Positions 1,902-50,601 of a DNA stretch of 64,000 bases are shown here, one piece after another. The notes beneath the pieces are model-generated. The model saw nothing but the letters and a program-made list of their open reading frames with translations. It had not been told where the DNA came from and ran no database searches. How positions within the stretch are numbered: position 1 is the stretch's first letter; every line of letters starts with the position of its first letter. Origin of the DNA: Myxococcales bacterium (GTDB lineage: Bacteria; Myxococcota_A; Polyangia; Polyangiales; Ga0077539); assembly GCA_016792845.1 (NCBI GenBank), contig JAEUKH010000018.1:10984-74983 (forward strand), read 5' to 3'. The position numbers were made by a program, and so were the translations under genes.

Positions 1902-3395
1902 TCACCGACCGAGCCGCGCGCGCAGCTTCGCCCACGCGGCGGTCACGAGCCCCGCGCGCCACGCCCACAGCCCCGCCACCGCCAGCACCAGCGCCCGCGA
2001 CGCAGGCCAGCGCAGCGTCGCCCACTGCCCCGCGAAGGCCATCGTCGAGGCCCCGAGGGCCGCGGCCACGACGCGCCACGAGACCCGAACACCGCACGCC
2101 TGGCGCAAGAGAAAGGGCGCGATCATCAAGGTCGTGACCTGCATGAAGGCGTAGGCCCAGCCCACTCCCATGAGCCCCACCCGCGGCACGAGGAGCCACG
2201 CCGCGAGGGCGAAGACCCCGTTCGCGTAGACCTCGCTGAGCACGAAGTGCCCGAGGCGCTGGCGGTAGAGGAGCGGCCCCAAGAGAACCCACACCATCGC
2301 GCGCGACGCGTCGGCCACCGAGAGCATGCCGAGGAGCGGCGCCGCTTCGCCGAAACGCGAGGAATACAAGAGCCACACCGCGAGGTCGCGGGTGCCGACC
2401 AAGAGGAGCACCGCGGGCGGCACGACCCCCAACACGAAGCGCGCCGTCTCGTCGACCTCGCGGCCCAACGACGCCGCGTCGGTCGCCGCCGCGAAGCGCG
2501 GAAAGGCGTAGCTCCCGAGGCTCCCGAGCATCAGCGCGAAGTAGGTCGAGCCGATCGCCCAGGCGGCTTGAAACTGACCGTTGAGCGCGGGGCCGCCGCG
2601 GTGCTCAAGGCTGAGCCGTACGACGCTCATCGCGCCCTGGGCCGAGAAGCCCGCGACCATCGACGCGAGGCCGAGGGTGAGCGCGTCGCGGCCGTACTTC
2701 GGGTCAAAACGAAGCGAGAAGCGCCACGAGAGGGTCGGCACCGCGCGACGCCCGAGGCGCTGACCGAGCGGCATGAGCACCAAGGCCGAGAGCAGCATCG
2801 CAACGAACTGCCCGGTGAGGCCGAATCGCCAGGTGGCCGCGCACACCAGCGCCATCTGGACGAGGGCGTTGAGCACCTGGAGGCGCGTCGCCGTCGCGAT
2901 CTCGCCCATCGCGACGAGGGTCTGCGAGGGCAAGAGCGCCACCGCGAGGAGCCCCGTCGCCAGCCCCGCGGGCAGCACCAACGGCCACGCCTCGGCCCCC
3001 CACGGCGCCGGGAAGACCGCCCGCGCCGCCAGCGTCGCCCCCAACGTCGCCACGAGGGTCACCGCCGCCATGCCCGTCGACGCCGACGCGTAGGCCAGCG
3101 CCACGTCGTCGTGGTCGCCGCGCTTGAACGAAGGGCTCACCCGCTGCACGAGCGCAGGGCCCCCGAGCATGGCCAGCGGCACCATCGCGGTCGCCACGAT
3201 CTGGAGCACCTCGGCCGAGACGCCGACCCCCACGGGCCCGAGCACATGGGCGGTCACCTTGCCCCGAACGATGCTCGCGAAGGTGCCGACCAGGGCGCCC
3301 GCCAGCGCGATGGCCGCCGCGAGGCCGCGAGAGGGGGTGCGGGCCGCCGCGGCGGCGTTGGCGTCGTGAGGCGCTTGCATAGGGCTACGACGCAC
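1902..3395 (-). CDS. polysaccharide biosynthesis/export membrane protein (MOP/Wzx-like flippase family)
   Basis: 497-aa highly hydrophobic ORF with about 12-14 predicted TM segments. The N-terminal pattern (VRGKVTAHVLGPVGVGVSAEVLQIV) is typical of O-unit flippases. It is adjacent to a GT2 gene. Confidence 0.55.
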   Translation of the reverse strand: MRRSPMQAPHDANAAAAARTPSRGLAAAIALAGALVGTFASIVRGKVTAHVLGPVGVGVSAEVLQIVATAMVPLAMLGGPALVQRVSPSFKRGDHDDVALAYASASTGMAAVTLVATLGATLAARAVFPAPWGAEAWPLVLPAGLATGLLAVALLPSQTLVAMGEIATATRLQVLNALVQMALVCAATWRFGLTGQFVAMLLSALVLMPLGQRLGRRAVPTLSWRFSLRFDPKYGRDALTLGLASMVAGFSAQGAMSVVRLSLEHRGGPALNGQFQAAWAIGSTYFALMLGSLGSYAFPRFAAATDAASLGREVDETARFVLGVVPPAVLLLVGTRDLAVWLLYSSRFGEAAPLLGMLSVADASRAMVWVLLGPLLYRQRLGHFVLSEVYANGVFALAAWLLVPRVGLMGVGWAYAFMQVTTLMIAPFLLRQACGVRVSWRVVAAALGASTMAFAGQWATLRWPASRALVLAVAGLWAWRAGLVTAAWAKLRARLGR

Positions 3396-3480
3396 TCTCT
3401 ACGCCATCTCGGGCCCCGCGCGCAGCACGCGCGGTGACGATGAACCCTAAGCCCGGCGCCGTGCTACCAACCCCTACGGC

Positions 3481-4383
3481 ATGGACAACTCGCTGCGATT
3501 TACGCTCCTCATGGGCACCTACAACCACGCGAAGTACCTCCCGACGGCGCTCGACCATGTGCTCTCGCAGACGCGGCCCCCCGAGCGGATCGTGTTCTTC
3601 GACGACGGCTCTCGCGACGACAGCTTCGCCCTCGCGCGGGCGCGCTTCGCGGGCGACCCGCGGGTGGTGTTCGTGCCCGACGCCGACCGCAACATGGGCC
3701 TGCTCACCCGCATGCGCCTCGCGCGCCCGCTCTTGCTGCCCGGCAGCTTCGTCGTCCAGCATGCAGGCGACGACATGCTCGACCGCGCGTGCTTCGCCCG
3801 TCACGCCGAGAACCTCAGCCGACGCGCCGCGCGATGGAGCGTCGCCGCCATCGACGCCGTCGACGAGGAGAGCGGAGAGTTCTTGTACGCGATCAAGCCC
3901 GACCCCGCGGTGCTCGAATCCGCGGCGCCGCTGCTCGAACGGCTACTCCGGGGTGCGCCCTTTCCGCCGGTGCACGGGTGGGCCTATCACACCGCCCTGC
4001 TCGACGAGGTGGGCGGCTACGACCCAGGCTTCGCGATGGAGGATCTGCCCCTGCTCTTCCGTTTCGCGGCGCGCGAGCGCCCCTCGCTCACCGACGCCAC
4101 CGTCTGCGCCGTGCGCGTTCGCCCGAACCAGTACGCCCGGTGGCGAGGCCAGCTCCCGCGAGACGCCGCGCGCCTCGCCCTTGAGAGCGTGCGGCAGCAC
4201 CCCAGGGCCGCGCTCGAATACGCCTCGCGGCAGTACATGGCCGCCGCCACCGGGTCTGCGCGGCACCGCGCCTGGGCCGATGCCCTCGCCGACCTCACCC
4301 GCGCCGTCGCCCTCTGGCCCGTGCCCACAGCGCCCCACTTCGTCGCCCCGCTGAAGAAGCTGAAGACTCGTTTGGTCGGTTGA
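3481..4383 (+). CDS. family 2 glycosyltransferase
   Basis: 300-aa ORF. N-terminus FTLLMGTYNHAKYLPTALDHVLSQT...VFFDDGSRDDS is the GT2 signature (DXD-type, Rossmann-like). Confidence 0.7.
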   Translation: MDNSLRFTLLMGTYNHAKYLPTALDHVLSQTRPPERIVFFDDGSRDDSFALARARFAGDPRVVFVPDADRNMGLLTRMRLARPLLLPGSFVVQHAGDDMLDRACFARHAENLSRRAARWSVAAIDAVDEESGEFLYAIKPDPAVLESAAPLLERLLRGAPFPPVHGWAYHTALLDEVGGYDPGFAMEDLPLLFRFAARERPSLTDATVCAVRVRPNQYARWRGQLPRDAARLALESVRQHPRAALEYASRQYMAAATGSARHRAWADALADLTRAVALWPVPTAPHFVAPLKKLKTRLVG

Positions 4384-4447
4384 CGCGACAGGCCGAGAGG
4401 GGTTGAACTGCCGATCCAACCCTCGCATCGTGAGGCCCGGGCGCGAC

Positions 4448-6607
4448 GTGGAGATCATCAAAGACACACCCTTCGAGGTCGCCACGGTGACCTGGCAATT
4501 GTCACCGCCTGCGTGGTCGCTCACGGTGGTGGTCAAGGGCACCTTCAGCCTCGCCGACGATGGCAGCCTCAGCGTCGCAGAGACCCAGCGCCCCTGCGAG
4601 GGCGACATTCTGTGGGACGATGTCGAGCCCGGCTCGCCGCGCCGTGAGAGCGACCTGGCGGTGTACAAACCCCGAGGCGAGTGGTTCGTCGAAGGCCACT
4701 GTTACCCGCCCGGCGGCGAAGCCACCACGTCGGCGTGCAGCGTCACCCTCGGCCGTTCGGGCCGCGCCCTCGCCGTCTTCGGCGACCGCCACTGGGGCGC
4801 CGCAGGCGTCGCCTCAGCGCCCGCGCCCTTCACCGCGATGCCCCTCCGATGGGAGCGCGCCTACGGCGGCCCCGGGCACCCGTCGAACCCCGTGGGCCGC
4901 GGCGTCGAGGCCGTCGAGACCCGCGAGGGGCGGGTGCATCGCTTGCCCAACCTCGAAGCCCCCGAGGCGAGGGTCGAGAGCCCCCATCGCCCGGGTTTCG
5001 CAGCGTGTTTCGCCCCCGTCGGGCGCACCTGGCCGGTGCGGAGCGCCTTCGCGGGCACCTACGACGCGACCTGGCGCGCGACGCGCTTCCCGTGGTTCGC
5101 CGCCGACCTCGACACGGCGTACTTTTTGGGCAGCCAGCACCTCCAGTGGGCCGAGACGTATTGGCGCGGCGACGAGCCCTTCGAGCTGGTCAACCTCCAT
5201 CCGCAGCACCCCCGCCTGCGAGGCCAGCTCGCGGCGATGACCGCGCGGGTGCTCGCGACCCCCGCGGGCCTCGCACCCAATGAGACGAACGCCCGGGCCC
5301 TCAACGCCGTCCTCGACACGGTCACGTTTCTGCCCGACGAGATGGCCGTTACGTGTGTCTGGCGCGCGGTGCTCACGGTCACCGACGAGACCGCCTCGAA
5401 CCTCGGCTTTCTCTACGTCACCCACGACGACCTTGAGGCGCCGCGCCCCCTCGCGGCCCTCGTCGCAAGGCTCGCCGCGGAGCGCGACGCGCAGGCCGCC
5501 GAAGCGGGCGCCGACGCCGAGATGCCGCCCCCCGGCGCACCCCTCAGCGACGCCGAGCGGATGTTCTCGCCTGCCGTCGCGGGCCTCGCGGGCACCCTCG
5601 CCGCGCGCGGCATCAGCGCCTTCGACGCGACCCTCCGCACCCACGACGCCGCCCCCGCCCCATCGCCCCCGCAGGTCGATCACGCCGCGTTGCGGGGCCG
5701 CCTCATGGCGCGCCTCGCCAACGACGAGGCCGTCGACGATCTCGACCTGAGCGACGCCGACCTCCGCGGGCTCGACCTCGCCGGGCGGAGCCTCAAGGGC
5801 CTCCTCGCGCCCCGCGCCCAACTGAGCGGCGCGACCCTCGACCGTTGCGATCTCAGCGACGCGGTGCTCACCGACGCGAGCCTCGCCCACGCCGCCCTGC
5901 GCGGCGCGACGCTGACCCGGGCTGAGCTCTCGGGGTGCTCGGCCGAGGCCGCGAGCTTCGACCGCGCGGTGCTCCGCGAGGCGGTCTTCGAGGCCGCGAC
6001 CTTGAGCCGCGCGAGCTTCGCCAACGCCATCGTCGACGGCTGCGATTTCACCCGCGCGGCGCTCTCGGGCGCGGTGCTCCGAGAGGCCTCGGGCAAGGGC
6101 GTCGAATTCACCGCGGCGCGCCTCGACGGCGTTCAGGCCGAGCGCGCAGTGCTGCCCGACGCGACCTTCCGCCGCGCGAGCGTGGTGGGGGCCCGTTTCG
6201 ACGACGCGCGGCTCGACAACCTCCGGGCCCTCGACGGCGCGGTCTTCGACACCACCAGCTTCCGCGGGGCGAAGCTCGACGGCGCCAACTTCAGCGAGTC
6301 GCGGCTCGTCGGGTCACACTTCGCCTTCGCGAGCTTGAAGAAGGCCGAGTTCAGCGACGCCGCGCTCACCCGCGCGGGCTTCGAGGGCTGCGTGCTCAAG
6401 GGCGCGTGCTTCGACCGCGCTGACCTGCGAGAGGCCGCGATGCTGCGCTGCGACCTCCACGAAGCCCGCTTCGAAGCGAGCGACCTCCGCGGCGCCGACC
6501 TCCGCGGCTCGAACCTCTACGGCGCCGAGCTCTGGCGCGCGCAGACCGAAGGGCTACGCACCGAACTGGCCATCGTCACCCGCTCTGGCCTCGACCCCAA
6601 CCTCTGA
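4448..6607 (+). CDS. DUF2169-domain protein fused to C-terminal pentapeptide repeats (T6SS spike-associated family)
   Basis: The six-frame ORF starts at TTG 4403. I place the start at in-frame GTG 4448 (VEIIKDTPFEV..., the typical DUF2169 N-terminus). About 400 aa of DUF2169-like sequence is followed by about 300 aa of A(D/N)LxxA pentapeptide repeats (ADLSDADLRGLDLAGRSLKG...). Confidence 0.65.
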   Translation: MEIIKDTPFEVATVTWQLSPPAWSLTVVVKGTFSLADDGSLSVAETQRPCEGDILWDDVEPGSPRRESDLAVYKPRGEWFVEGHCYPPGGEATTSACSVTLGRSGRALAVFGDRHWGAAGVASAPAPFTAMPLRWERAYGGPGHPSNPVGRGVEAVETREGRVHRLPNLEAPEARVESPHRPGFAACFAPVGRTWPVRSAFAGTYDATWRATRFPWFAADLDTAYFLGSQHLQWAETYWRGDEPFELVNLHPQHPRLRGQLAAMTARVLATPAGLAPNETNARALNAVLDTVTFLPDEMAVTCVWRAVLTVTDETASNLGFLYVTHDDLEAPRPLAALVARLAAERDAQAAEAGADAEMPPPGAPLSDAERMFSPAVAGLAGTLAARGISAFDATLRTHDAAPAPSPPQVDHAALRGRLMARLANDEAVDDLDLSDADLRGLDLAGRSLKGLLAPRAQLSGATLDRCDLSDAVLTDASLAHAALRGATLTRAELSGCSAEAASFDRAVLREAVFEAATLSRASFANAIVDGCDFTRAALSGAVLREASGKGVEFTAARLDGVQAERAVLPDATFRRASVVGARFDDARLDNLRALDGAVFDTTSFRGAKLDGANFSESRLVGSHFAFASLKKAEFSDAALTRAGFEGCVLKGACFDRADLREAAMLRCDLHEARFEASDLRGADLRGSNLYGAELWRAQTEGLRTELAIVTRSGLDPNL

Positions 6608-6616
6608 GCACACCCC

Positions 6617-8566
6617 GTGAACGTACTGACCCACGCGCGCGCCGTGCTCGACCACATTGACGCCCACGGCGCCCTCGAAGACCTGGTGATTCGCGACGTC
6701 GAGCTCTCTGGGCAGACCCTCGCGGGGCTCAAGGTGCGCCGCTGTCGCTTCGAGCGCGTGCGGCTCTGGCGCTGCAATTTCGACAAGAGTCAGTGGCACG
6801 AGGTGACCTTCCGCACCGTCGACCTGCAAGAGTCGACCTGGCGCGGCTGCCGCCTCGAAGGCCTCGACCTGAGCCTCGACGGCGACGATTTTACCCAAGC
6901 CACCGGCGCCGATTTTACCGAGAGCCATTGGCTCCGCGTCAACGCCTCGCGGGCCAACTTCACCCGGGCCGTGCTCCGCGACGCGACGCTGGTGCAGTGC
7001 GACCTCTCGGGCGCCTCGTTCGAAGAGGGCGAGCTGTCGGGACTCACCGCGCCGGGCCTCGTCGCCGTGCAGTGCCAGCTCAGCCGGGCGCGCCTCCACC
7101 GGGCCCTCCTCCGCGGCGCCAACCTCTCGCACGCCATCGCCAAGGGCATCGAGCTGGTCGGCGCGACCCTCGACGAGGCGACGGTCCGGAAGGGCCAGTA
7201 TGACGGCGCCGACTTCTCCGGCGCGAGCGCAGAACGCGTTGATTTCTCAAGAGTTTTGGTACTCACCGGCGCCTTCCAGGGCGCCCGCCTCGGGGGAGCT
7301 CGGCTCGCGCGGTTGAACCTCGGCAGCAGCGATTTTCGCGGCGCCGACCTCCGCGAGGTGTCGTTCTCGGGTTCGCGGCTCGTCGAGTCGCGCTTCGACA
7401 GCGCCAACGCCGCCCGGGCGCGCTTTGCGGGCTCGCGCCTCCGCGCCTGCGTGTTCGAGGGCGCCGACCTCAGCGACGCAGACTTCTCATCGGCCATGCT
7501 CGAACAGGCCCGCTTCACCCGCGCGACCTTGCACCGCGCCGTGTTTCAAGGCGCCAACCTCCGAGAGGCCAGCCTCGACCACGCCGACCTCGGCCACGCC
7601 GACCTCGACGGCGCGACGCTCGCCCAGGCCTCGGGGCGCGGCGTCGGCTTCGCGCACGCCACCCTGCGCGGCGCGACGCTCGCCCACGCGCGCTTCGAGG
7701 GCTGCGATTTTCGAGCGGCCGTCCTCACCGAGGTCGACGCCCGCGAGGGTCACTTTCTCGCGAGCGAGTTCGTGCAGAGCAACCTGGCCAACAGCCAGTG
7801 GGCGCAGGCCAGGCTCGACGAGTGCCTCTTCACCGAGGCCGCCCTCACGGGCGCCACCCTCGCGCGCGCGTCGCTCTGCAAAGCCGTCTTCGCCGAGAGC
7901 GCCCTCGACGGGCTCGACCTGAGCGAGGCCACGCTCACCGAGGCCGACCTCGACGGGCTCGACCTCCGCGCGGTGTTCTTGCGCGGCGCCGACTTCACCC
8001 GCTGCGCCATGGGCGCCGTCGACCTGCGCGAGGCTGACTTGAGCCGCGCCATCCTCACCGACGCCGACCTCGCCGGCGCCCAGCTCAACGGCGCCGTCTT
8101 CGACGAGGCCTGCTGCCTCCGCACGCGCTTCACCGGCGCCGCGATGACAGGGCTCCGCGCCCGTCGCCTCGTCGCCCGCAGCGCCGATTTCAGCGAGGCC
8201 ACCCTCACCGCGGCAGACCTGCGCGGCGCCGACCTCCGCGAGGCCCACTTCGACCGCGCCGTCGTGACCCGCGCGCGCCTCGAACTCGCCCGCCTCGACC
8301 GATGCCGCTTCGTCGAGGCCGACCTCCGGCAGGTCGATGCCGCGTTCGCGCGCGCCCACCACGCCGATTTCGCACAGGCCCGGCTCGACCTCGCCAGCTT
8401 CGTCGACGCCGACCTGCAAGGCGCGAGCTTCCATCGCGCGAGCCGAGACACCGCCCGCTTCGAACGCGCCGACCTCCGCGGGGCCACAGGCACCGACGAA
8501 GAACGCGCGCGGGCCGAGACCTTCAGCCCTCCGAGCGGCCCAGACGCCATGACACACGCGAGGTGA
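6617..8566 (+). CDS. pentapeptide-repeat protein
   Basis: 649-aa ORF composed almost entirely of pentapeptide repeats (…ADLSDADFSSAMLEQARFTRATL…). Starts 10 nt after the previous stop. Same operon as the DUF2169 and PAAR-like genes. Confidence 0.7.
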   Translation: MNVLTHARAVLDHIDAHGALEDLVIRDVELSGQTLAGLKVRRCRFERVRLWRCNFDKSQWHEVTFRTVDLQESTWRGCRLEGLDLSLDGDDFTQATGADFTESHWLRVNASRANFTRAVLRDATLVQCDLSGASFEEGELSGLTAPGLVAVQCQLSRARLHRALLRGANLSHAIAKGIELVGATLDEATVRKGQYDGADFSGASAERVDFSRVLVLTGAFQGARLGGARLARLNLGSSDFRGADLREVSFSGSRLVESRFDSANAARARFAGSRLRACVFEGADLSDADFSSAMLEQARFTRATLHRAVFQGANLREASLDHADLGHADLDGATLAQASGRGVGFAHATLRGATLAHARFEGCDFRAAVLTEVDAREGHFLASEFVQSNLANSQWAQARLDECLFTEAALTGATLARASLCKAVFAESALDGLDLSEATLTEADLDGLDLRAVFLRGADFTRCAMGAVDLREADLSRAILTDADLAGAQLNGAVFDEACCLRTRFTGAAMTGLRARRLVARSADFSEATLTAADLRGADLREAHFDRAVVTRARLELARLDRCRFVEADLRQVDAAFARAHHADFAQARLDLASFVDADLQGASFHRASRDTARFERADLRGATGTDEERARAETFSPPSGPDAMTHAR

Positions 8567-8570
8567 TCCG

Positions 8571-8984
8571 ATGTTTCCAGCTTCGACCAAAGAGGGCGGC
8601 CAGTGTTTCGGCTTCCCTGACGTGTGCAAGGTGCCTGCGCCCCCGGCGCCGCCCATTCCGACACCGTTTCCCAACATTGCAATGTGTGCCAACGCGAGCG
8701 GCGCCTCGGTGACCCAGAAGGTCAAGATCCGTAACAAGCAGGTCTTGCACAAATCCAGTGAGATTCCGAATAGTTCTGGCGACGAGCCGGGCACCCTGGG
8801 GGGCATGATCTCGGGCGTCAACATGTCAAAGGCCGTTTACAAGACGGCATCGTCAAAGGTGCTCGTCGAGGGCAAGTACATCGTCACGCACCTCAAGACG
8901 ACCCCCCAGAACGGGAGCCGCGCGAACGTCCCCATGGGCACCCAGGTCGCCCCCAGTCAGACCAAAGTCATCATCGGTCGGTAG
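8571..8984 (+). CDS. PAAR-like (DUF4150) spike-tip protein, domain only, no C-terminal toxin extension
   Basis: 137-aa ORF. N-terminus FPDVCKVPAPPAPPIPTPFPNIAMCANAS is the hallmark of DUF4150 PAAR-like proteins. GC is about 58-60 %, against about 70 % in the flanks. Confidence 0.65.
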   Translation: MFPASTKEGGQCFGFPDVCKVPAPPAPPIPTPFPNIAMCANASGASVTQKVKIRNKQVLHKSSEIPNSSGDEPGTLGGMISGVNMSKAVYKTASSKVLVEGKYIVTHLKTTPQNGSRANVPMGTQVAPSQTKVIIGR

Positions 8985-9006
8985 CCCCAAGGCAAGAGGC
9001 ACGCGT

Positions 9007-17570: not shown

Positions 17571-19175
17571 ATGAAGTCGATTCGTCGGACGTTCGGAGCT
17601 GCCATCGTCGCAGCCGCCATGCTTGTGGGCGCTGCCCCGGTTTACGCCCAGGTGCCCCAGACCCTCGTGCACCAGGGCCGCCTTCTCGACCGCAACGGCG
17701 CTGCCGTGAGCGGCACCCAGACCCTCACCTACCGCATCTACGACGCCGCCACAGGCGGCTCGCCGGTTTGGTCAGAGACACACACCGTGACCTTCGATGA
17801 AGGGTACTTCTCGGTGCAACTCGGCTCGGTGACCATGATCCCGTCGACGGTGTTCAACGGCTCGACCCGCTACCTCGGGGTCACCGTGGGCAGCGACGCC
17901 GAGATGGCGCCCCGCGAAGTGGTGTCCAGCGTGCCCTACGCCCTCTTGGCGGGCAACGTGGTGGGCGACATCAGCCCCCGCAGCGTCACCGTGGGCGGCC
18001 GCCAGATCATCGACCCCTCGGGCAACTGGGTGGGCGGCTCATCGGGCATCGCGGGCCCCGCCGGTCCGCAGGGGCCTGCCGGGCCTGCCGGCGCTCAGGG
18101 GCCTGCCGGGCCTGCCGGACCGCAAGGCGCCGCGGGGCCTGCCGGCGCGACGGGGCCTGCCGGGCCTGCCGGGCCGCAAGGGCCTGCCGGCACCGGGGGC
18201 GGGGGCAGCGCGCTGAACGGCGGCTGCGTCCAGGGTGTGCGCATCCACGACGTGTGCGTGACCCACTTCGACAACTCGAACCCCGGCACCGACTGGAACA
18301 CCGCCGCCTCGACCTGCGCCGGTCTGCGGAGCGACCTCTGCTCGGCCACGCAGTACAACCGCTTGCGCTACACCAGCGCTTATGACGGCGAAGACTTGTT
18401 CTACAACGACCAGGTCGGTCGACGCGCGGTCTGGTCGCGTCACTTCTCTGACAACGATGCCGGTCGCATTTCGTTTACGTTGCAGAGTTCTGACGATCCC
18501 TCCATCAGCCAGACCTACGGCTTCGCCTGCTGCTCTGCGGCGGCCCCAGCCGATGTCGTCGCGGCCTCGACGCTGGTGCCCGCCCAAGGGTCAACCGACC
18601 GCGGTGTTCGCATCACCTACATCCGCAACGTCGAGTCGGTCACCAGCATGATGGCGGCCAACATCTGCGCGGGTCTCCACAGCGACCTGTGCTCGACGGC
18701 GCAGTACGTCACCCTCAACGACGCGGGCCGCTTCTCGGGCAGCACCCGTCGCCTCACCAACCACTACTCTGACAACGACGGCACGCTGTTCAACCCCATC
18801 CTCGGTTCGAACACGGCCGACAACCCTCAGTGGAACAACGCCTGGTCGTTCGCTTGCTGCGTCTCGCAGCGCCCGGCTGACCTCTCGTGCCCCTCGCCCG
18901 GCACCTCGGTCAACAACGTGTGTGTGATGGCCTTCAACGAGGTCGAGAACGCCACCTTCTTCGACGCCGCCCGCGCCTGCGCCCGGCTCGGGGCCGACGT
19001 CTGCTCGAACAGCCAGATGCAGAGCATCCGCAACGGCGGCCGCTTCGCCGGGGTGCGCGCATGGACGAACAACGGCGCCGACAACGACTCGAACCGCGTC
19101 GGCGGCTTGCTCACCAGCATGCCCGACAACCCCAACCCCACCTCAGACCGCTTCGGCTACGCCTGCTGCCTCTGA
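17571..19175 (+). CDS. secreted collagen-like triple-helix repeat protein with N-terminal beta-rich domain and three C-terminal Cys-rich modules
   Basis: RBS agaggag 8 nt upstream of ATG 17571. Signal peptide MKSIRRTFGAAIVAAAMLVGAAPVYA. About 30 Gly-X-Y triplets (GPAGPQGPAGPAGAQG...). Three modules of about 100 aa each contain CAGLxSDLCS...DND... and end F/Y-(G/A)-(F/Y)-ACC. Confidence 0.7.
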   Translation: MKSIRRTFGAAIVAAAMLVGAAPVYAQVPQTLVHQGRLLDRNGAAVSGTQTLTYRIYDAATGGSPVWSETHTVTFDEGYFSVQLGSVTMIPSTVFNGSTRYLGVTVGSDAEMAPREVVSSVPYALLAGNVVGDISPRSVTVGGRQIIDPSGNWVGGSSGIAGPAGPQGPAGPAGAQGPAGPAGPQGAAGPAGATGPAGPAGPQGPAGTGGGGSALNGGCVQGVRIHDVCVTHFDNSNPGTDWNTAASTCAGLRSDLCSATQYNRLRYTSAYDGEDLFYNDQVGRRAVWSRHFSDNDAGRISFTLQSSDDPSISQTYGFACCSAAAPADVVAASTLVPAQGSTDRGVRITYIRNVESVTSMMAANICAGLHSDLCSTAQYVTLNDAGRFSGSTRRLTNHYSDNDGTLFNPILGSNTADNPQWNNAWSFACCVSQRPADLSCPSPGTSVNNVCVMAFNEVENATFFDAARACARLGADVCSNSQMQSIRNGGRFAGVRAWTNNGADNDSNRVGGLLTSMPDNPNPTSDRFGYACCL

Positions 19176-29135: not shown

Positions 29136-29852
29136 TCAGAGCGGCGCGATCTTCTCCCTGATCGCGTCGAGAAAGTCCTTGAGGCCGTTCGCTTGACCTC
29201 GCGCACGCAAGCGTTCGAGCGGAGCCCTTTCGAGAACTTCCTCTCTCCGCGTCTTCGAGAGCCTCAGCTCATCGAGCGCGCGCTTCGCATCGTTCGGGTC
29301 GGTCACCTTGGCTGAGGTCAGCCGCTCACTCTGCTCACACGGGTCGAAGCCGAGGCGCTTGCGAAGCGCTGCGAAGTTCGCCGTCTCGGTCTCCCCCTCG
29401 GGGCTGTATCCCGCAAGCACCCAAGCCTCGTGCTCTGGCTGCGCGATGCCGAAGGCTAGGCGATCTTTTTCGTGACGCTTCCACGCCGAGATGCCCGCTG
29501 CGATGCCCTCGGCCCAAGCTGAGGCGTTGCGGTCACCGTCATGCACGAACACCACGCAGCAGTGCTCCTTGCGTCGTTGCCTCTGAATCGCACGCGCGAG
29601 CCGGAGCACCTGGCGCTGGACCGGACTCCCAGACTCCCCGTGCACAGGCGGAACTGTGAGCGGGGCCGCAAGCTTGAGGATCTCAGTCCACGAGACGTAC
29701 CCGGCGCTGCCGTCTGGGTGCCACCACGTCACAACGCTTTCGGTGATGCCACGAACCCAGTCGTGCTCTTCTTCGATCACCCGGGTCGTCAACGCCCTGA
29801 GGTCGGCGGCATCGGCCCCTCCTTCGCAGACCAGCACGAGGGTCCAACTCAC
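29136..29852 (-). CDS. small Toprim-like protein (DUF4276-like; conserved LVCEGG Glu and VHDGD DxD), partner of upstream ABC-type ATPase
   Basis: I place the start at GTG 29852-29850, which overlaps the TGA of the upstream ATPase as GTGA. The alternative ATG at 29933 would overlap the ATPase by 84 nt. Motifs: VSWTLVLVCEGGAD..., ...CVVFVHDGD..., EAWVLAGY. Confidence 0.5.
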   Translation of the reverse strand: MSWTLVLVCEGGADAADLRALTTRVIEEEHDWVRGITESVVTWWHPDGSAGYVSWTEILKLAAPLTVPPVHGESGSPVQRQVLRLARAIQRQRRKEHCCVVFVHDGDRNASAWAEGIAAGISAWKRHEKDRLAFGIAQPEHEAWVLAGYSPEGETETANFAALRKRLGFDPCEQSERLTSAKVTDPNDAKRALDELRLSKTRREEVLERAPLERLRARGQANGLKDFLDAIREKIAPL

Positions 29853-31018
29853 GGATCGCCCCCCCCTCGCTGGGCCACCCAGCCTTCGAGTTGCGCCATC
29901 CAGAGTTCGCCGGGCTTCACCATGTCGCGCCACAACTCAAACTCGGGATGCGCGTCGAGACCGGCGCACCGCACGGCCCCCTTGGGGTCGAGGGTGGTGA
30001 CCCGCACCTCGTCGAAGCCCACCGCATCGAGCAGGTACGGAGAGTGCGTGGTGGCCAGGATCTGCAAGCCCGGGCGCACCACGCGTTGAAACTCCTTGAG
30101 TTGGGCCACCAGATCGATCTGGGCCTTCGGGTGCAGGCCTCGGTCTAGCTCGTCGAGCATCAGCACGCGCACATGCTCGTGCGCCAGCACCGCGGTCGCC
30201 ACCGCGAGCACCAGGGTCGTGCCCTCGCTCGCCGCCGAAAGCGGAATGTTCGACCCGCTGTCAGTGTCGACCACCACCCGCTGGCCCCACACGCTCTCGT
30301 CGCGGCGCTGCGACATCGCGTGTCCGTTCACCACGATCTCGTCGGCACGCACCCGGCTCACCCGCGCCCGCTCGACCCGCACACCCCGCACCGACGGAAT
30401 CACCCGCCGCACCATCCCCACGATGCCCTCGCGCGTCTCCGGCCTGCGCGCCCAGAGGTCACCCAACACCGACCCCAGCCCCTCGCCGTTGGGCCCCAGG
30501 CGCGGCACCGCCTCGTCTGAGTAGCTGGGTCGCGCCAGGGTCGGAGCGTCAAACGCATGCAACACCCCCTCGCCGAGCCACGCGCGAAGCTCAGCCCACG
30601 CGGGTTCGCGCGACTTCGCGAGGCCGCGCGCTTCCACCTCGCCGATCGACTCTTCGATCTGGCCAACGACCTTCGCAGACGCCAAGACCGGGCCGTCACC
30701 CAGCACGCGCCGCTGCACCGAGCCGACCTCACCCGGGCCGACCCGAAGCGTCGCCAGCAATAACTTCTGCGCGACCGCCTCAAGGCTGATCGTCGTCGCG
30801 CCGACGGCGTCACGCGAGAGCACCGACACGTCGTCACTCCACGCCGCGTCAACGCCCTCCGAGAGCGACCCCGCGAGCGCCTGGAGCACCAGCCCCACGC
30901 CCGCCAGGAGGCTCGACTTGCCCGCCCCGTTGGGCCCCACGAACACCGTAAACGGCGCCAGATCGACCGACACCGACCGCAGCGCTCGAAAGTTCTCGAA
31001 GCTCACCCGCTGAATCAT
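29849..31018 (-). CDS. ABC-type (AAA_21/OLD-like) ATPase
   Basis: Start ATG 31018-31016 (MIQRVSFENFRALRSVSVDLAPFTVFVGPNGAGKSSLL: Walker A). C-terminal signature-like LSAASEGT, Walker B VRVLMLDELD, H-loop ILATTHSP. The 204-codon N-terminal extension of the six-frame ORF (to 31630) is antisense to a real + strand gene and is rejected. Confidence 0.65.
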   Translation of the reverse strand: MIQRVSFENFRALRSVSVDLAPFTVFVGPNGAGKSSLLAGVGLVLQALAGSLSEGVDAAWSDDVSVLSRDAVGATTISLEAVAQKLLLATLRVGPGEVGSVQRRVLGDGPVLASAKVVGQIEESIGEVEARGLAKSREPAWAELRAWLGEGVLHAFDAPTLARPSYSDEAVPRLGPNGEGLGSVLGDLWARRPETREGIVGMVRRVIPSVRGVRVERARVSRVRADEIVVNGHAMSQRRDESVWGQRVVVDTDSGSNIPLSAASEGTTLVLAVATAVLAHEHVRVLMLDELDRGLHPKAQIDLVAQLKEFQRVVRPGLQILATTHSPYLLDAVGFDEVRVTTLDPKGAVRCAGLDAHPEFELWRDMVKPGELWMAQLEGWVAQRGGGDP

Positions 31019-31045
31019 CGTCGCCCGCAGTCGTACCCCGGCCCC

Positions 31046-31798
31046 GTGCGGCGTGTCACCCGCGCGGACCCGCCCTGGAGTACCCTTCGCCAGGTGACGC
31101 CTCCCCGACGCCTCGCCGCCGCGCTCGCGCTCGCCACCCTGGCCCTGGGTCTGCTCTGGCTCCGTCGCCGCCCCAGCGACCCCGAGACCGCCGCGGGCGC
31201 CCCGCAGCCCCGCCGAGGCACCTACGAGGCTCAGGAGCGCCCGAACCTGGGTGAGACCGAGCGACGCCCCTCGGAGCCCCCGCGCGCCCCCGCACGCACC
31301 CTCCACGACCGGGCGCAGCGCGACGCCTTGCGGGCGGCCCTGGTGACCCTCTGGCAGCGCGAGGCGGCCGCAGCACGCGCCGAGCAAGCCCGCGATGCGG
31401 CCACCGACGACGACGCGGGGGTGCGCTACCCCGCCATGCCCACCCGCGACGGAGGCGTCGACCCTGAGTACCTCCGGAGCCGCATCCGAGAAGACTTTCT
31501 GCCCATGGCCGGAGCTTGCTACGACCAGCTCCTCGCGCGGCGCCCGGGGGTCGAGGGCCGGGTGGTGATCGACTTCACCCTCGTGGGCGATTCGCGGGTC
31601 GGCGGCGTCGTCGACGAGGCCTCGCTGCACTATGGCGACGCAGGGGTTGCCGACGCGGGGCTCATGGAGTCGGGCTTCGAGACCTGCCTCCGCGAGTCGA
31701 TGCTCGCCATGGCCTTCGCCCCTCCCCCCGGGAGCGGTCAGCTCAGGGTTCGCTACCCGCTGAACCTCCGCCCCGACGCTCCCGACGCGGGCCGCTGA
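31046..31798 (+). CDS. membrane-anchored protein with C-terminal TonB-C/AgmX-like domain
   Basis: N-terminal signal-anchor (RRLAAALALATLALGLLWL). Charged/coiled middle region. C-terminus GRVVIDFTLVGDSRVGGVVDEAS...FETCLRESMLAMAFAPPP...LRVRYPLNL fits the TonB C-terminal-like fold. A second protein at 40750-41865 carries a similar domain. The exact start is uncertain. Confidence 0.45.
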   Translation: MRRVTRADPPWSTLRQVTPPRRLAAALALATLALGLLWLRRRPSDPETAAGAPQPRRGTYEAQERPNLGETERRPSEPPRAPARTLHDRAQRDALRAALVTLWQREAAAARAEQARDAATDDDAGVRYPAMPTRDGGVDPEYLRSRIREDFLPMAGACYDQLLARRPGVEGRVVIDFTLVGDSRVGGVVDEASLHYGDAGVADAGLMESGFETCLRESMLAMAFAPPPGSGQLRVRYPLNLRPDAPDAGR

Positions 31799-31820
31799 GC
31801 CGCGACGCCGCCCGGCGCGA

Positions 31821-32040
31821 GCGTATCTCCAGATTCGTCAGGGCGTATCTCCAGATACGTCAGGGCGTATCTCCAGATACGTCAGGGCGTATCTCCAGAT
31901 GCCTCGGGACGTGTCTCCAGATGCCTCGGGCGTATCTCCAGATGCCTCGGGCGTATCTCCAGATGCCTCGGGACGTATCTCCAGATGCCTCGGGACGTAT
32001 CTCCAGATGCCTCGGGACGTGTCTCCAGATACGTCGCGGG
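31821..32040. repeat. array of ten tandem 21-22 bp repeats (consensus CGTATCTCCAGAT[A/G]C[G/C]TC[A/G]GG[A]), each containing inverted hexamers GTATCT-CC-AGATAC
   Basis: Read directly from the sequence. There are 3 A-type units (…AGATACGTCAGGG) and 6 B-type units (…AGATGCCTCGGG[A]), plus a degenerate terminal unit. The array is intergenic between convergent 3' ends (31798 and 32043). Confidence 0.9.
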
Positions 32041-32042
32041 GC

Positions 32043-32597
32043 TCAGCCCTTGGCGGGCTTCTTCTCGCGCTTGGCCTTGCGGCCGAAGCCGCCGAAGTAG
32101 GCGAGCGGCTCTTGGAGCGCGCGGCGCAGCTCGGGGTTCGATTTCGCGAGCACCGAGAGGTCGTTGTAGACCCGCAGCGTGGGTTTGCGGCTCTTGGCGC
32201 CGTAGAAGAGGGCCGAGTCGCTGAGCCGCGACACCATCTGAACGCTCACCGCGTCGACCTGGGCTGCGGCCTCGGCGAAGCGCTCGTGGAGCGTAAGCCA
32301 GTCGCGCAGGATCTCGGCTTCGAAGCGCTGGGGGTCGACCCCGCCGTCGCCGTGGCCTGCGACCAGGGCCGGGTACTTCTCGGCAGCGTCGAGCACGCCC
32401 CGAAGCACCTCGCTCTCGCCCACCCGCAGCTTGCCGAGCGACACCTTGCGCGCGTCGGGGCTCAGCACCGTGACGTGCGGCGCGATCAACGCCGCGGCTT
32501 CTTCGACCAGGGCCACCGCCCGGGTCAGATCGGCCAGCATCGCAGCCCGCCTGGCCGACCCGTCGACCTTGTTCGCCTTCTTCGAGACCTTTGCCAT
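32043..32597 (-). CDS. hypothetical protein (Lys-rich termini), last gene of a Clp-like ATPase operon
   Basis: 184-aa ORF with GC3-rich codon usage consistent with coding. No family is recognisable from the sequence. Confidence 0.45.
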   Translation of the reverse strand: MAKVSKKANKVDGSARRAAMLADLTRAVALVEEAAALIAPHVTVLSPDARKVSLGKLRVGESEVLRGVLDAAEKYPALVAGHGDGGVDPQRFEAEILRDWLTLHERFAEAAAQVDAVSVQMVSRLSDSALFYGAKSRKPTLRVYNDLSVLAKSNPELRRALQEPLAYFGGFGRKAKREKKPAKG

Positions 32598-32645
32598 GTG
32601 AGACGTACCTCCGTTCTTGCGAAGGTAGCGCAGGGCGAGGTGTCG

Positions 32646-33410
32646 TTACCAGAGCCCGTCTCCGGCGATGCGAAGCCCCACCGAGCCCCAAGGCGCTTGG
32701 GCGGGTTGCCCCCAGAGCCCCGCGCCCACGGTGGTATCGAGCTGCACGGCGTGACTGAGGAGGTATCGAACGCCGCCTTGCATCGAGCCGCCAGACGCCC
32801 CGGCGTAGGGGTCACCCGAGAAGAGTTCTGCGACCCCGTAGAGGTCGCGCCAGAGGTGGAGCTGCGTGCCGACGCCCCAAGTGAGGGCCAGCGGGTGCTC
32901 GACCGCGGCGGTGGTGGCGTAGAAGCCCACGTTGGCGTGCACCAGGAAGTGGTCGTGAGGGCGCAGCGACTCGGTGAGCGCGAGATACCCGAAGCCGTCC
33001 CAACCGGTGGCGCCGAAGCCGCCCACGTGGAGCGGCGGCACGCCCCCGAGCACCATCGCCACCCCGGGGAAGCCCAGCCGCTCGGGCATGCGTCGCAGCA
33101 GCAGCTTGGCCTGAAAGAGCGGCCCCGTCGCCGAGAAGGCGCGGCCCCCCGCGAGCGTCGTCCCGTACACCCCGCCCAGGGTGAGTTCGACGCGCTCGTG
33201 CGGCCCGAAGGCAGGGAGCACCCAGTGCTGGAGCGCGTTGCGATCGAGCCTGAGCCAGGTCTCAAGCTGCGCCCCGCGCGCGCCGACCACCCGCGCATCG
33301 TCTGTAACGAAGGGCCTGATCGCCCACGCCGGCGAAGGCGCCAGCAGCAGCGACGCGAGGCAAACCCAACGACGCGCGTTCGGCGCCGCACCCGCAACAC
33401 GAGACAGCAT
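32646..33410 (-). CDS. outer-membrane beta-barrel protein (MetA-pathway/transporter-like family)
   Basis: Signal peptide MLSRVAGAAPNARRWVCLASLLLAPSPAWA. N-terminal RPFVTDDARVV motif. Alternating hydrophobic beta-strand pattern ending with an aromatic residue (…GLRIAGDGLW). Confidence 0.55.
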   Translation of the reverse strand: MLSRVAGAAPNARRWVCLASLLLAPSPAWAIRPFVTDDARVVGARGAQLETWLRLDRNALQHWVLPAFGPHERVELTLGGVYGTTLAGGRAFSATGPLFQAKLLLRRMPERLGFPGVAMVLGGVPPLHVGGFGATGWDGFGYLALTESLRPHDHFLVHANVGFYATTAAVEHPLALTWGVGTQLHLWRDLYGVAELFSGDPYAGASGGSMQGGVRYLLSHAVQLDTTVGAGLWGQPAQAPWGSVGLRIAGDGLW

Positions 33411-33412
33411 CC

Positions 33413-35719
33413 TCAGGCCCTCGGCCCCTCGGCTGCGCCGAGATCGATCACGCCGTCACCCCCGACGGTCACCCCGCGGTCACGCAGGGCGGGCTCCCGC
33501 GCGAGGAGCGCCGCCACCGGAGACACCACCCGGTCTTCGAGCACCCGCTTGAGCGGACGGGCCCCGCGGGTCGGGTGAAAGCCCTCTTCGGCGAGCTGGA
33601 GCCGCAGCGCGGGGGTCACCCTCAGGCTGAGGTTTCGCCGCACGAGGCCCGAGCGTTGGGCGGCCTTCGAGAGCTCGAGGTCGACGATCCGCAGCACGTC
33701 GTCGGGGCTGAGGTTGCGGAAGCTCACCACATGGTCGATGCGGTTGAAGAACTCAGGGCGAAAGTGCTGGCGCACGGCGCGGTCGAGCCCCGCGGCGGTG
33801 GCGTCGGCGTCGAAGCCCACGGGCCGCGTCTCGGTGACGCCGAGGTTCGAGGTCATCACCACCAGGGTCATGCGAAAGTCGACGACGCTGCCGAAGCTGT
33901 CGGTCATGCGCCCCTCGCCGAGCACCCCGAGGAGGAGGTCGAACACCTCAGGGTGGGCCTTCTCGACCTCGTCGAGGAGCACCAACGAGAGCGGCTGCTC
34001 GCGCACCCTTTGGGCGAGGCTGGTGACCCCGCTCCCCACCTCAAGGAGCCGCTGCGCCGACCCGGCGAACATGTACTCGCTCATGTCGAGCCGCACCATG
34101 CGCGCCTCGTTGCCGAACATGTACCGCGCGAGGGTGCGCGCGAGCTCGGTCTTGCCGACCCCCGTGGGGCCGACAAAGAGCAGCGTGCCGATGGGGCGCT
34201 CGGGGTCATCGAGGCCCGCTTTGAAGCGCGCGAGCACCCGGGCCGCCACCGCGCAGGCGTGGTCTTGACCGATCACGGCCCCCGAGAGCCGCGCGGCGAG
34301 GGCCGTCGCGCCCACCCGCGTCTCGTCGGCGATGAGCTCGACGGGCAGCCCGGTGTTGCGCGCGAACAGCTCTGACACGTCGCGGGGGTAGAGAGTCTTG
34401 GGCGCACGCACGCTCTGCCCGGGCGCGGGCGCGCCTTCTCCCGCGGCGAGCCAGTCGACAAAGCGCATCGCCTTCCCGGGGAAGGCCACGTCGCGCTGGA
34501 AGGTCGCGAGGTGATGAATGAGCCGCTTCATCGCCCCGGCGTGCAAGCTGAGATGCGGCGCCTTGCGCTGCTGGTAGCTCGCGAGGAGCACGGGCAGCTG
34601 GTACGCCGGCGGCGGCGTGAGCCTGAGCACCACCAAGGGCTCGACCAGCGAGGCGAAGCGACGGCGGCAGTGCTCGTACTCGGCCTCGGTGCACTCGGCG
34701 ATCACCGAGACCTCGCCGTCGCGGGCCGCGGGCAAGAGGATCTCTCCGAGCGAGGCGCCGTCGCTCTGCGGCTGGAGGAGCTTCACCAGCGCGTCGAGGT
34801 AGAGGTAATCGCCCTCGTGGCTGAGCTCGCTTAGCAGGTCGAAGCAGCGCTCTTGCCACATCCCGACGTAGGTCATGCCCGCGATGAGCCGCGTGGCGCT
34901 GGTGGCCCAAAGCCGCGGGGTGTGAGCCTCGCGGCCCTCGCGACGGCGGGCGAGGAGGCTCCGCGCGAGGCGCCGCACGAAGGTCGTCTTGCCGACGCCG
35001 CTCGGGCCCACCAAGAGCACCGACGGCGGCGGGCTGCGCGAGAGGAGCCCCAGCGCGTTGGTGAAGGCGTCGCTCTCGCCCACGACCCCCGGGAGCTTGT
35101 TGCGCGCCGCGCGCTCGACCCACTCGTCGGCGACCTGTGACAGCACCGGGAAGCGCCGCGCGGCGTCGAGGTCGTGGGCCTCGTCTTCGGTGGTGCCGGT
35201 GCCCCGCATCGACCAGCTCCTGACGTACTCATCGCCGACGTAGCGGAAGTCGTAGAGGGTCGAGGCCTGCTCGCCGAGGAGCGCCGACGACACCGCCGAT
35301 TGCAGCACCTCGGCCGCGATGTCGAGGCTCTCGATGACGAACCACCACCCGAAGCGCGGCAGCATCACGCGGTAGCCGCCCTTGCGCAGCGCGCACCACG
35401 CGTAGCTCATGCGAAGCGGGATCTCTTTGGCCCCGATCACCATGCGCTTGTTCGACACGCTCTGCGGAAACACCCGCAGCGACACCTGGCGGGTCTGGAA
35501 GTCTTCCTCCCACAGGTACCGCTCGACGTCGTCGTCGCCCACCGCGAGGGCTTGTTGCAGCGCCACTTCGAGCTGCCGCAGCACGTCGTCTTCGCTGGTG
35601 CCCACCGCGCTCGGCGGCGGGCGATCGAAGAACGCATCGAACTGCCGAATGAGCGTGCCGGTCAACAAACCCCTGGCGTGCGGCACGAAGTAAACGCGAA
35701 ACGAACGCTTGTCACCCAT
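33413..35719 (-). CDS. ClpA/ClpB-like double-ring AAA+ ATPase with a non-canonical 200-aa N-terminal domain
   Basis: 768 aa. D1 Walker A is LLVGPSGVGKTT. D2 has FVGPTGVGKTELARTLA, Walker B LVLLDEVEKAHPEVFDLLLGVL, and sensor-2 GARPLKRVLE. The N-terminal 200 aa have no Clp_N features. The next gene starts 3 nt after its stop. Confidence 0.7.
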   Translation of the reverse strand: MGDKRSFRVYFVPHARGLLTGTLIRQFDAFFDRPPPSAVGTSEDDVLRQLEVALQQALAVGDDDVERYLWEEDFQTRQVSLRVFPQSVSNKRMVIGAKEIPLRMSYAWCALRKGGYRVMLPRFGWWFVIESLDIAAEVLQSAVSSALLGEQASTLYDFRYVGDEYVRSWSMRGTGTTEDEAHDLDAARRFPVLSQVADEWVERAARNKLPGVVGESDAFTNALGLLSRSPPPSVLLVGPSGVGKTTFVRRLARSLLARRREGREAHTPRLWATSATRLIAGMTYVGMWQERCFDLLSELSHEGDYLYLDALVKLLQPQSDGASLGEILLPAARDGEVSVIAECTEAEYEHCRRRFASLVEPLVVLRLTPPPAYQLPVLLASYQQRKAPHLSLHAGAMKRLIHHLATFQRDVAFPGKAMRFVDWLAAGEGAPAPGQSVRAPKTLYPRDVSELFARNTGLPVELIADETRVGATALAARLSGAVIGQDHACAVAARVLARFKAGLDDPERPIGTLLFVGPTGVGKTELARTLARYMFGNEARMVRLDMSEYMFAGSAQRLLEVGSGVTSLAQRVREQPLSLVLLDEVEKAHPEVFDLLLGVLGEGRMTDSFGSVVDFRMTLVVMTSNLGVTETRPVGFDADATAAGLDRAVRQHFRPEFFNRIDHVVSFRNLSPDDVLRIVDLELSKAAQRSGLVRRNLSLRVTPALRLQLAEEGFHPTRGARPLKRVLEDRVVSPVAALLAREPALRDRGVTVGGDGVIDLGAAEGPRA

Positions 35720-35896
35720 CGCGAAGGCCCGCGAGTGTACGCGAAGCCCTCACCCGCGTCGCGTCGCGATCGCCGTAGGCCTCTCGCGACCCCGCGCATC
35801 GGCCCCTCGGCGACGCCGCGGCGGAGGGCCCAAATGCCACGCGGCCCATGAGAGACCCACGAGCCGCGGTGCGAGGGCGCGCCGAGAGGCTTCAGC

Positions 35897-37702: not shown

Positions 37703-37970
37703 AAACTACATCTCCTTCGAGACAGACAACGCTACGAAGCCGCGCGACGATACCGACTGTCACGCCCCGCAGCAATCCATTTGTCGCGCTCGCCGCACCA
37801 TCGCCCTGCACCCCGCGGGCCAGCGCCGACTCACCCCGGTTTCGTCGGCGTCACCGCCCAGAACCACGCGCCACGACCGCCAACCAAGTTGGCACTTGTC
37901 GAAACGGGGTTGTCACTGAAATTAGTTCACGCGGGGCGCGGAGCGGCCGTTATGCTTGGTGTTGAGAGCC

Positions 37971-48094: not shown

Positions 48095-48270
48095 AGAAGG
48101 GTGACGTCTCAGGGGAGGCTATGACGGCCTCACGAAGGACCCCACATTTTGAGCAACTCTTGTCTCAGCCCGACAGAACCCTTCGTCTGCCCGCTCCGAC
48201 GATGCCGCGATCAAGCAAACATCGTCGTGTTTCTACCGCTCCGCACGGCCCCCTACGGGTGGCTTCGCGC

Positions 48271-50594: not shown

Positions 50595-50601
50595 CGTGGG
50601 C

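Follow-up and report, generated by a model that had tools for sequence, protein, structure and literature searches.

How could a PAAR cone be carried by a VgrG protein that lacks the β-prism on which such a cone sits? In T6SS (type VI secretion system) models, VgrG is one polypeptide, and its prism anchors the PAAR cone and selects effectors. The question is raised by five co-directional genes, at positions 4448–13457 of the plus strand, in a stretch of 64,000 nucleotides from a Myxococcales bacterium (assembly GCA_016792845.1, contig JAEUKH010000018.1, positions 10,984–74,983), which is referred to here as the window. The genes encode two putative spike chaperones, a PAAR-like cone protein, a VgrG without prism (the VgrG head) and a 924-aa protein, denoted VgrG-C. 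We read them as an orphan (auxiliary) T6SS spike module of the synteny type C or Class III Tvp kind, with its spike encoded in two pieces, and hold this reading with slightly better than even confidence.

About 45 open reading frames (ORFs), covering the whole window, were scanned against Pfam and NCBIfam; genes were called from a frame analysis based on GC content at third codon positions (GC3) and from independent calls on identical Logan contigs. The window has a GC content of ~70% and carries myxobacterial marker domains, e.g. myxo_SS_tail. The five ORFs of the operon are all intact, with coding-type GC3 (0.84–0.91) and intergenic gaps of 9, 4, 22 and 20 nt, and three of their products are identical to NCBI protein records (MBL8601393, MBL8601395 and MBL8601397). 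Neither sigma-70-like promoters nor meaningful terminators were found in 3300–17500, no tRNA genes were found in the window, and no integrase was found near the operon. The original prediction for this locus had proposed a DUF2169–pentapeptide-repeat fusion, a pentapeptide-repeat protein, a PAAR-like protein and a VgrG in one co-directional operon, the accessory genes lying upstream of vgrG; hidden Markov model (HMM) searches recovered every one of these families in the expected genes, and the gene positions agree with the arrangement. On the other hand, nothing supports its label of a "large tail gene" for the fifth gene, and it missed both the truncation of VgrG at the junction of the oligonucleotide/oligosaccharide-binding (OB) fold and the prism, and the prism-like C-terminus of the 924-aa protein.

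For comparison, we used related cassettes from metagenome-assembled genomes (MAGs) of Polyangiales and other Myxococcota (L005/L007, L008 and L009) and from Logan and JGI contigs (L014 and L016), and collected 80 further metagenome loci with the cone protein as query.

The first gene (4448–6607, GTG start) encodes a TvpAB-like chaperone of 719 aa (MBL8601393.1, named "DUF2169 domain-containing protein" at NCBI), with a DUF2169 domain (PF09937) at aa ~40–321 (E = 9.2e-75; 252 bits, cutoff 25) and a pentapeptide-repeat β-helix at aa ~440–716 (E = 7.3e-41); with the L005 counterpart it shares 38% identity. The second (6617–8566) encodes a TvpB-like stand-alone pentapeptide-repeat protein of 649 aa, whose repeats, at aa ~110–625, were matched in 17 stretches (E = 7.8e-83) and which has syntenic counterparts in L005, L008, L009 and L016. 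The third (8571–8984) encodes a PAAR-like (DUF4150/PIPY) cone protein of 137 aa that matches Tox-PAAR-like (PF13665, formerly DUF4150; E = 1.5e-28) and shows no toxin domain in these scans. Its gene is conserved better than any other in the cassette, with 72–80% identity across loci, and its motif PIPTPFPN is kept in relatives.

By their domain content, these three genes match a described set of spike chaperones, namely TvpAB, TvpB and a PIPY-type PAAR protein. The passages of Sachar et al. (JBC 2025; PMC11883445) on DUF2169 describe three syntenies, among which type C comprises a DUF2169–pentapeptide fusion, a pentapeptide protein, a DUF3540 protein, a DUF4150 ("PIPY") cone and a VgrG. The same set is Class III Tvp, named in the passages of Monlezun, Earl and Coulthurst (EMBO J 2026; PMC13373197) on Serratia marcescens Db10 as TvpAB, TvpB, TvpC and Paar1. 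There, the pre-complex assembles on TvpC, a VgrG mimic with an OB fold and a prism, which is later replaced by VgrG1; the interface for Paar1 is formed by the last residues of TvpC, and in the model TvpAB and TvpB wrap the prism with their long pentapeptide rods. Of Myxococcota, these passages of PMC13373197 say only that sequences fit its classes.

The chaperone and cone part of the window is thus of a known kind. It shares with Class III Tvp the DUF2169–pentapeptide protein, the second, stand-alone pentapeptide protein, the stand-alone DUF4150/PIPY cone without a recognisable toxin domain and a dedicated VgrG, and Myxococcota are among the phyla listed as TvpA carriers. It differs in that vgrG stands after the tvp and paar genes, not before them, in that an undescribed family follows vgrG, and in that the cassette is apart from any T6SS core within the 64 kb. 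Furthermore, Class III VgrGs have the longest prisms reported, at 700–800 aa in total (PMC13373197, in its passages on this class), whereas the VgrG of the window has none. DUF3540/TvpC, present in most relatives (L005, L009, L012, L014, L016 and most metagenome relatives), was not found in the 64 kb either (tblastn with the DUF3540 protein of L005, best E = 0.87), and the 4-nt gap between tvpB and paar is too small for a DUF3540 gene. The statement of the original prediction that all spike-tip accessory families are present therefore holds for DUF2169, pentapeptide-repeat and DUF4150 proteins but not for DUF3540/TvpC, which is expected in such clusters. No COMM-domain protein (cf. PMC13392464) was detected in the operon; small unassigned ORFs stand beside the cassettes of L012 (130 aa) and L014 (121 aa).

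The fourth gene (9007–10662) encodes a VgrG of 551 aa. Its hub matches Phage_GPD over aa 36–395 (E = 6.6e-51), and the protein passes the TssI/VgrG model TIGR03361 (218.5 bits against a cutoff of 186.35) and TIGR01646 (195 bits against 121.8). It was aligned to the solved VgrGs 7q5p and 4mtk at E ~1e-30 to 1e-32; the alignment extends through the OB fold (...VGAEVLLVHLRGDPDRPVIAG) and ends at target residue ~473–476 of 643–645, which is where the prism starts. Phage_base_V scored 21.1 bits, slightly under its cutoff of 23.8. The C-terminus lies 39 aa past the OB-fold motif GDPDRP and reads ...VVDYINDDA-COOH (terminal sequence ...GDPDRPVIAGSLPNFSNVPPVTARNATHGGVRSRNGVVDYINDDA), its last residues (...DYINDDA) standing where canonical VgrGs have their first prism strand, NEIRFEDKKG. 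As judged from these alignments, the protein consists of a gp27-like hub and a gp5-type OB fold, with no β-prism.

This end is not peculiar to the window. Eleven independent homologues, at 25–60% identity, stop 39–42 aa after GDPDRP, nearly all with ...DDA-COOH, and copies from metagenomes end in ...FEDDA exactly 39 residues past this motif. More distant VgrG relatives have tails of 200–500 aa. The ...DDA C-terminal signature could be used by annotators to recognise prism-less VgrGs.

The fifth gene (10683–13457) encodes the 924-aa protein (MBL8601397.1, "hypothetical" at NCBI), for which no known family reaches threshold in Pfam or NCBIfam. Its family is small, with 18 representatives among 1.84 billion proteins in an exhaustive HMMER search. 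Following a disordered Lys/Ala-rich leader (aa 1–95), it has a conserved novel N-module (aa ~99–229, positions 10977–11369) with the motifs VPxPxTxLxLGE, FGYPG, TVFQ, WTQ and TSG, an α-helical insert (aa ~225–658) whose centre is hydrophobic and Gly/Ala-rich and which contains an EF-hand-like loop, and a C-terminal β module (C-module; aa ~640–924, positions 12600–13457) that ends in ...GTKINIG. In the family alignment the C-terminus is K(I/V)N(I/L)G, which compares with ...GE(K/R)IHLG at the end of co-occurring TvpC/DUF3540 proteins. AlphaFold2 monomer models gave a pLDDT (predicted local distance difference test) of 55.9 overall and 65.4 for the C-module, which was modelled as a series of short β-hairpins; the leader was disordered, the N-module was not resolved, and blocks of long helices at aa 225–347 and 496–658 (pLDDT 72–81) were separated by the Gly/Ala-rich segment. 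The middle region is variable, being nearly absent in members of 430–550 aa and ~430 aa long in the window protein. Since the short members consist of N-module and C-module only, the helical block is a lineage-specific insertion, as would suit a payload.

Several comparisons, each of them weak, connect the C-terminal ~280 aa with the prism of VgrG. Profile matches in the PDB included the VgrG 9rce_F (E = 3.6e-4), the VgrG of enteroaggregative Escherichia coli 6sjl (E = 0.013) and the trimeric β-helix protein gamma-sarcoglycan. Below the Pfam thresholds, the C-module matched DUF2345 (E = 2.5e-4, 21.3 bits against a cutoff of 30.7) and Sarcoglycan_1 (E = 3.6e-4), and sub-threshold DUF2345 or DUF3540 matches were seen in three family members (2.5e-4, 6.7e-5/4.1e-4 and 3.3e-3). 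BLASTP aligned the C-termini of canonical VgrGs with those of the family end to end, at best with 4e-7 (P0038 against P0017), and with hhalign P was 7e-4 for VgrG prisms and 1.6e-3 for DUF3540. The C-module thus seems to resemble a VgrG prism tip, with weak but repeated significance.

Two other readings of this protein were tried and rejected. By eye, the N-module looked like the missing start of the prism (G-x-x-Q...P...T-x-L-x-L-G against GKERILLHTPQSNTWIRMG in the long relatives), which hhalign did not bear out (P = 0.098). The protein is not a DUF3540 fusion either, as it aligns end to end with an 1106-aa homologue in L005 that stands beside a separate DUF3540 gene, and BLASTP against that DUF3540 protein was empty. 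The N-module alignment, used as a profile against a database of 5.8 billion proteins, gave zero matches.

The truncated VgrG and the 924-aa family are closely linked. Wherever a VgrG ending in ...DDA was followed by enough DNA for this to be tested, a member of the family starts within a few nucleotides downstream (13 of 13 loci). L010 is an exception in spacing, with the family member following one small DUF3467 gene. We rejected a programmed frameshift or readthrough joining vgrG with the next gene; the frame of the family gene relative to vgrG varies among loci (0, 1 or 2), the gaps are 12–41 nt, and no slippery site was found between the two. Thus, they are two genes rather than a recoding product. 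Where short VgrGs have other endings (L012, L053, L061 and L068), the family is not found downstream, and in L014, where VgrG ends in ...NDGGF, the next ORF is a 325-aa DUF2345-like one instead.

Two loci depart from the simple pair. In the Sandaracinaceae MAG contig of L010 (10001–16681), TagH and a short VgrG (...ELEDDA) are followed by DUF3467, three tandem paralogues of the family (693, 442 and 449 aa) and then TvpAB, TvpB and DUF3540, an arrangement that suggests several alternative shafts for a single head. In L015 (4732–5595), the ORF after a short VgrG (...FNDHA) opens with the signature of the N-module (...TRLVLGEWVS...) but does not keep its coding character further on, probably through decay of the copy or a frameshift in the assembly.

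The broken copy in L015 bears on the possibility that the whole arrangement is a decaying remnant, vgrG being a truncated pseudogene and the downstream ORF its out-of-frame or rearranged remainder, with no function. The absence of tvpC from the window and the GC dip over 8–16 kb would fit such decay as well. We consider it very improbable, since more than 15 loci at 25–60% identity share both the truncation point and the ...DDA end, the five ORFs of the window are intact with the GC3 given above and are tightly spaced, and the family of the 924-aa protein carries a conserved N-terminal module of its own, not derived from VgrG.

Judged from weak homology statistics together with synteny, a head and a shaft that would form a two-piece spike are the best-supported reading, because the cone and the Tvp proteins act on a prism tip, VgrG has none, TvpC is not in the window and the next gene supplies a prism-like tip. 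As there is no DUF3540 in the window, the cone and its chaperones would find a prism tip in the locus only on the 924-aa protein. More specifically, the spike may be naturally split, the ...DDA head being completed in trans by an exchangeable shaft subunit (VgrG-C) that carries the ~430-aa helical insert as payload and places its tip under the PIPY cone with the Tvp chaperones; this specific form we put forward tentatively, at a little under even confidence. The 924-aa protein would trimerise, and its conserved N-module would dock on the ...NDDA end of the VgrG head. The C-module would form a triple-stranded prism whose blunt ...KINIG end is capped by the PAAR-like cone. The DUF2169 domain would shield the cone, and the two pentapeptide rods would wrap the prism tip, as modelled for TvpAB and TvpB of Serratia. 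The spike would carry the helical insert at its side as payload, by analogy with the lysozyme domain in T4 gp5, and the loaded spike would be fired by a T6SS encoded elsewhere in the genome. The three tandem paralogues in L010 fit the idea of shaft swapping.

A number of observations weigh against this proposal. L012 has a short VgrG, a full Tvp set and DUF3540 but no member of the family; therefore, a short VgrG can exist without a partner of the 924-aa type. The N-module showed no similarity to the segment after the OB fold of long VgrGs (hhalign P = 0.098, and the HMM of the start of the module fails to map to this segment), and none to OB folds or DUF3540 was detected. The 95-aa disordered leader ahead of it is awkward for a simple continuation of a prism. 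The pLDDT values, overall and for the C-module, are low to moderate, and come from monomers of what is expected to be a trimer. No conserved immunity gene was found after the 924-aa gene in the related loci examined, which fits an antibacterial payload poorly, and no T6SS core was seen in this genome, of which the 64-kb window was covered.

The main rival, which we consider doubtful, is kept alive by L012 and by the lack of homology between the N-module and any part of VgrG. It holds that the spike is complete without the 924-aa protein, the cone sitting with the Tvp chaperones on the single β-strand layer of the VgrG stub, and that the 924-aa protein is either a cargo effector or a TvpC-like "VgrG mimic" in the pre-complex, whose prism-like C-terminus would serve as a temporary holder of cone and chaperones or as a means of travelling with the spike. 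A precedent is Serratia TvpC, a prism-bearing VgrG mimic swapped out for VgrG according to the passages of PMC13373197 on the pre-complex; the C-terminus of the family is like that of TvpC, and in a window without DUF3540 the family could substitute for it. The two are however not simple substitutes, since L005, L009, L016, L020, L022, L033 and L093 carry both DUF3540 and the family. Adjacency to ...DDA VgrGs in every testable locus, together with the exact truncation point, is also hard to explain for ordinary cargo, and the TvpAB/TvpB rods are modelled wrapping a prism, which the VgrG stub does not offer.

In the puncturing device of phage T4 (gp27–gp5–gp5.4), hub and needle are separate polypeptides. 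The lysozyme domain of gp5 is inserted between its OB fold and its triple-stranded β-helix, the cleaved β-helix stays attached non-covalently, and gp5.4 is a PAAR-type cone that caps the tip of the helix. The proposed two-piece spike is like this device in its separate polypeptides, its internal extra domain and its PAAR-type cone, but T4 is split between the gp27 hub and the OB fold, whereas the window locus keeps the OB fold with the hub and is split between OB fold and prism. Moreover, the inserted domain of gp5 is a lysozyme, while that of the window is helical with no activity assigned, and no resemblance in sequence to gp5 was detected apart from generic prism-like repeats. Evolved or specialised VgrGs likewise carry a payload on the spike protein itself; in these the effector follows the prism in one polypeptide, whereas in the 924-aa protein the extra domain is internal and the prism tip free. 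The VgrG mimics of the TvpC/DUF3540 or DUF6484 kind are a precedent for a free-standing trimeric prism that can bind a PAAR-like cone apart from the gp27 hub, and the C-terminal motif of TvpC (...KIHLG) resembles the ...KINIG of the 924-aa protein; TvpC, however, has an OB fold and no insert, while the 924-aa family has a different N-module without OB-fold similarity.

Full-text literature searches turned up no mention of a VgrG that is split, or lacks its prism naturally, and has its shaft encoded by another gene. If the two-piece spike is real, head and shaft would be assembled from parts, and spikes could diversify by swapping shafts rather than whole VgrGs, a new and modular way of spike and effector diversification in predatory myxobacteria. 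The hand-over from Tvp pre-complex to VgrG would then be the docking of two separate proteins, which makes it a tractable test of chaperoned tip transfer to the hub, and a family of "hypothetical proteins" would gain a probable role.

As for the helical insert, no toxin domain was recognisable in Pfam scans of the 924-aa protein, and it has no transmembrane-grade hydrophobic helices (maximal 19-residue Kyte-Doolittle mean 1.25). An EF-hand-like loop, DANQDGKVSFGE, lies at aa 602–613 (positions 12486–12521; Pfam EF-hand_1 sub-threshold, E = 1e-4) and is kept in the homologues P0002 (DADGDGHVSMKE) and P0004 (DKNKDGTVTFDE); perhaps it could act as a switch that responds to calcium once the protein is delivered. 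Between the helical blocks of every long member, i.e. the window protein (aa ~348–510, positions 11715–12227), P0002, P0003 and P0005, lies a mildly hydrophobic segment rich in Gly, Ala and Leu. The example from P0003, AVAVGGGAALGVAAVGAGA, has a Kyte-Doolittle value of 1.72, and the segment is reminiscent of glycine-zipper membrane-insertion motifs.

We then consider which machine the module would serve. None of TssA–M, Hcp and TssB/C was found among the ~45 ORFs, in line with the original prediction that the 64 kb hold no T6SS core genes, and a vgrG with adaptor and PAAR genes away from a core cluster is, within this stretch, an orphan island. Likewise, the ±10 kb around each homologous cassette examined yielded no T6SS core genes; the flanks examined carry housekeeping genes, kinases and RCC1 proteins, the cassettes of L005, L009, L020 and L022 sitting among housekeeping genes. 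The cassettes therefore appear to be generally orphan, and the description as a vgrG-centred auxiliary module stands. T6SS genes have been reported in Polyangiales (PMC10196010).

The absence of a core both here and around the other cassettes would also fit a contractile injection system (CIS) other than a canonical T6SS, e.g. an extracellular CIS, or a use of the spike that is independent of a T6SS. Extracellular CIS spikes are also short and VgrG-like, and a weak PDB match to the AlgoCIS spike was obtained (7aef_q, E = 4.8e-4). Such use is nevertheless unlikely, and the other contractile-injection apparatus that the original prediction had allowed for is unsupported. The VgrG of the window scores above the cutoffs of both curated T6SS models, the solved structures that match it best are those of T6SS VgrGs (E ~1e-30), and no CIS sheath, tube or baseplate genes were found near any cassette. 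In L010, TagH (FHA and T6SS_FHA_C) lies directly upstream of the related short VgrG, and the passages of PMC11883445 on co-occurrence report DUF2169 and DUF4150 strictly with T6SS VgrG spikes.

The gene order of the window raised a further question, as it had been called "reversed" and unusual. It does differ from the published order, vgrG-tvpAB-tvpB-tvpC-paar, but it is a cyclic permutation of it, and comparative synteny showed the order tvpAB-tvpB-[DUF3540]-paar-vgrG-X, with X as the gene after vgrG, to recur in at least 13 related loci, so that it is normal in this clade. In most loci DUF3540 is flanked by tvpB and paar; it follows X in L005 and L014, precedes tvpAB in L009 and L016, and is lacking in the window and in L008. 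The permuted order is a lineage trait, because it is conserved in the related Polyangiales and metagenome loci; the canonical order is retained in the more distant Myxococcota loci L010 and L012.

Downstream of the 924-aa gene, and starting 14 nt after it, a lipoprotein gene (13472–15037, plus strand) has a lipobox (...ATLGC), a Cys-rich MXAN_6577-like segment and an RCC1 β-propeller (WD40_RLD, E = 1.4e-54; RCC1, E = 2.3e-38; NF041328, E = 3.5e-10). It is possibly an accessory gene of the module, its membership being uncertain. RCC1-repeat β-propeller proteins stand beside the cassette in three loci, i.e. the window, L008 (6504–7214) and L022 (15443–17254), and not in L005 or L009. Ser/Thr kinases also recur near the cassette, in L005, L012, L020 and L022. 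Immunity or regulation are possible roles for these RCC1 proteins and kinases. The next co-directional gene (15091–16383, plus strand), assigned by matches to tetratricopeptide repeat (TPR) families, is not conserved beside the cassette in the related loci examined, and nothing ties it to the module. About 1 kb downstream of the operon, a 614-aa protein (17331–19175) has a collagen-like Gly-X-Y stretch and weakly matches the N-domain of a Bdellovibrio "mosaic adhesive trimer" fibre.

The GC content falls to 0.67–0.68 over 8000–16000, against 0.71–0.74 upstream and ~0.69–0.71 downstream, and GC3 is 0.84 for vgrG and the 924-aa gene against 0.88–0.93 in neighbouring genes, which suggests a mild compositional island.

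According to Pfam and NCBIfam, the rest of the window includes polysaccharide genes, a class A penicillin-binding protein, two sigma-54 activators, a resistance-nodulation-division (RND) efflux operon and kinases. A block on the minus strand (29849–37705) encodes an AAA_21/AbiEii-type ATPase (whose best NCBIfam match, MADS3, is well under the cutoff), two unassigned ORFs, a ClpB-like double-AAA+ protein (33413–35749) and a 602-aa unknown protein with a faint match to a MIDAS (metal ion-dependent adhesion site) adhesin; it is possibly a defence or disaggregase-type island. The ClpB-like protein has no Clp N-domain and is under all ClpA/B/V cutoffs, and with 214 bits, where the ClpV1 model asks for 885, it was rejected as a ClpV. 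At 46493–55079 (minus strand), the pilMNOPQ genes of a type IV pilus adjoin aroC and aroKB, and next to pilMNOPQ an 888-aa protein combines FHA with a TadA/VirB11-like secretion ATPase; its FHA part gave a weak TagH match that is not T6SS-specific. Finally, three consecutive FGE-sulfatase (formylglycine-generating-enzyme-like) genes, one of them fused to a Ser/Thr kinase, are located at 58990–62609 on the minus strand.

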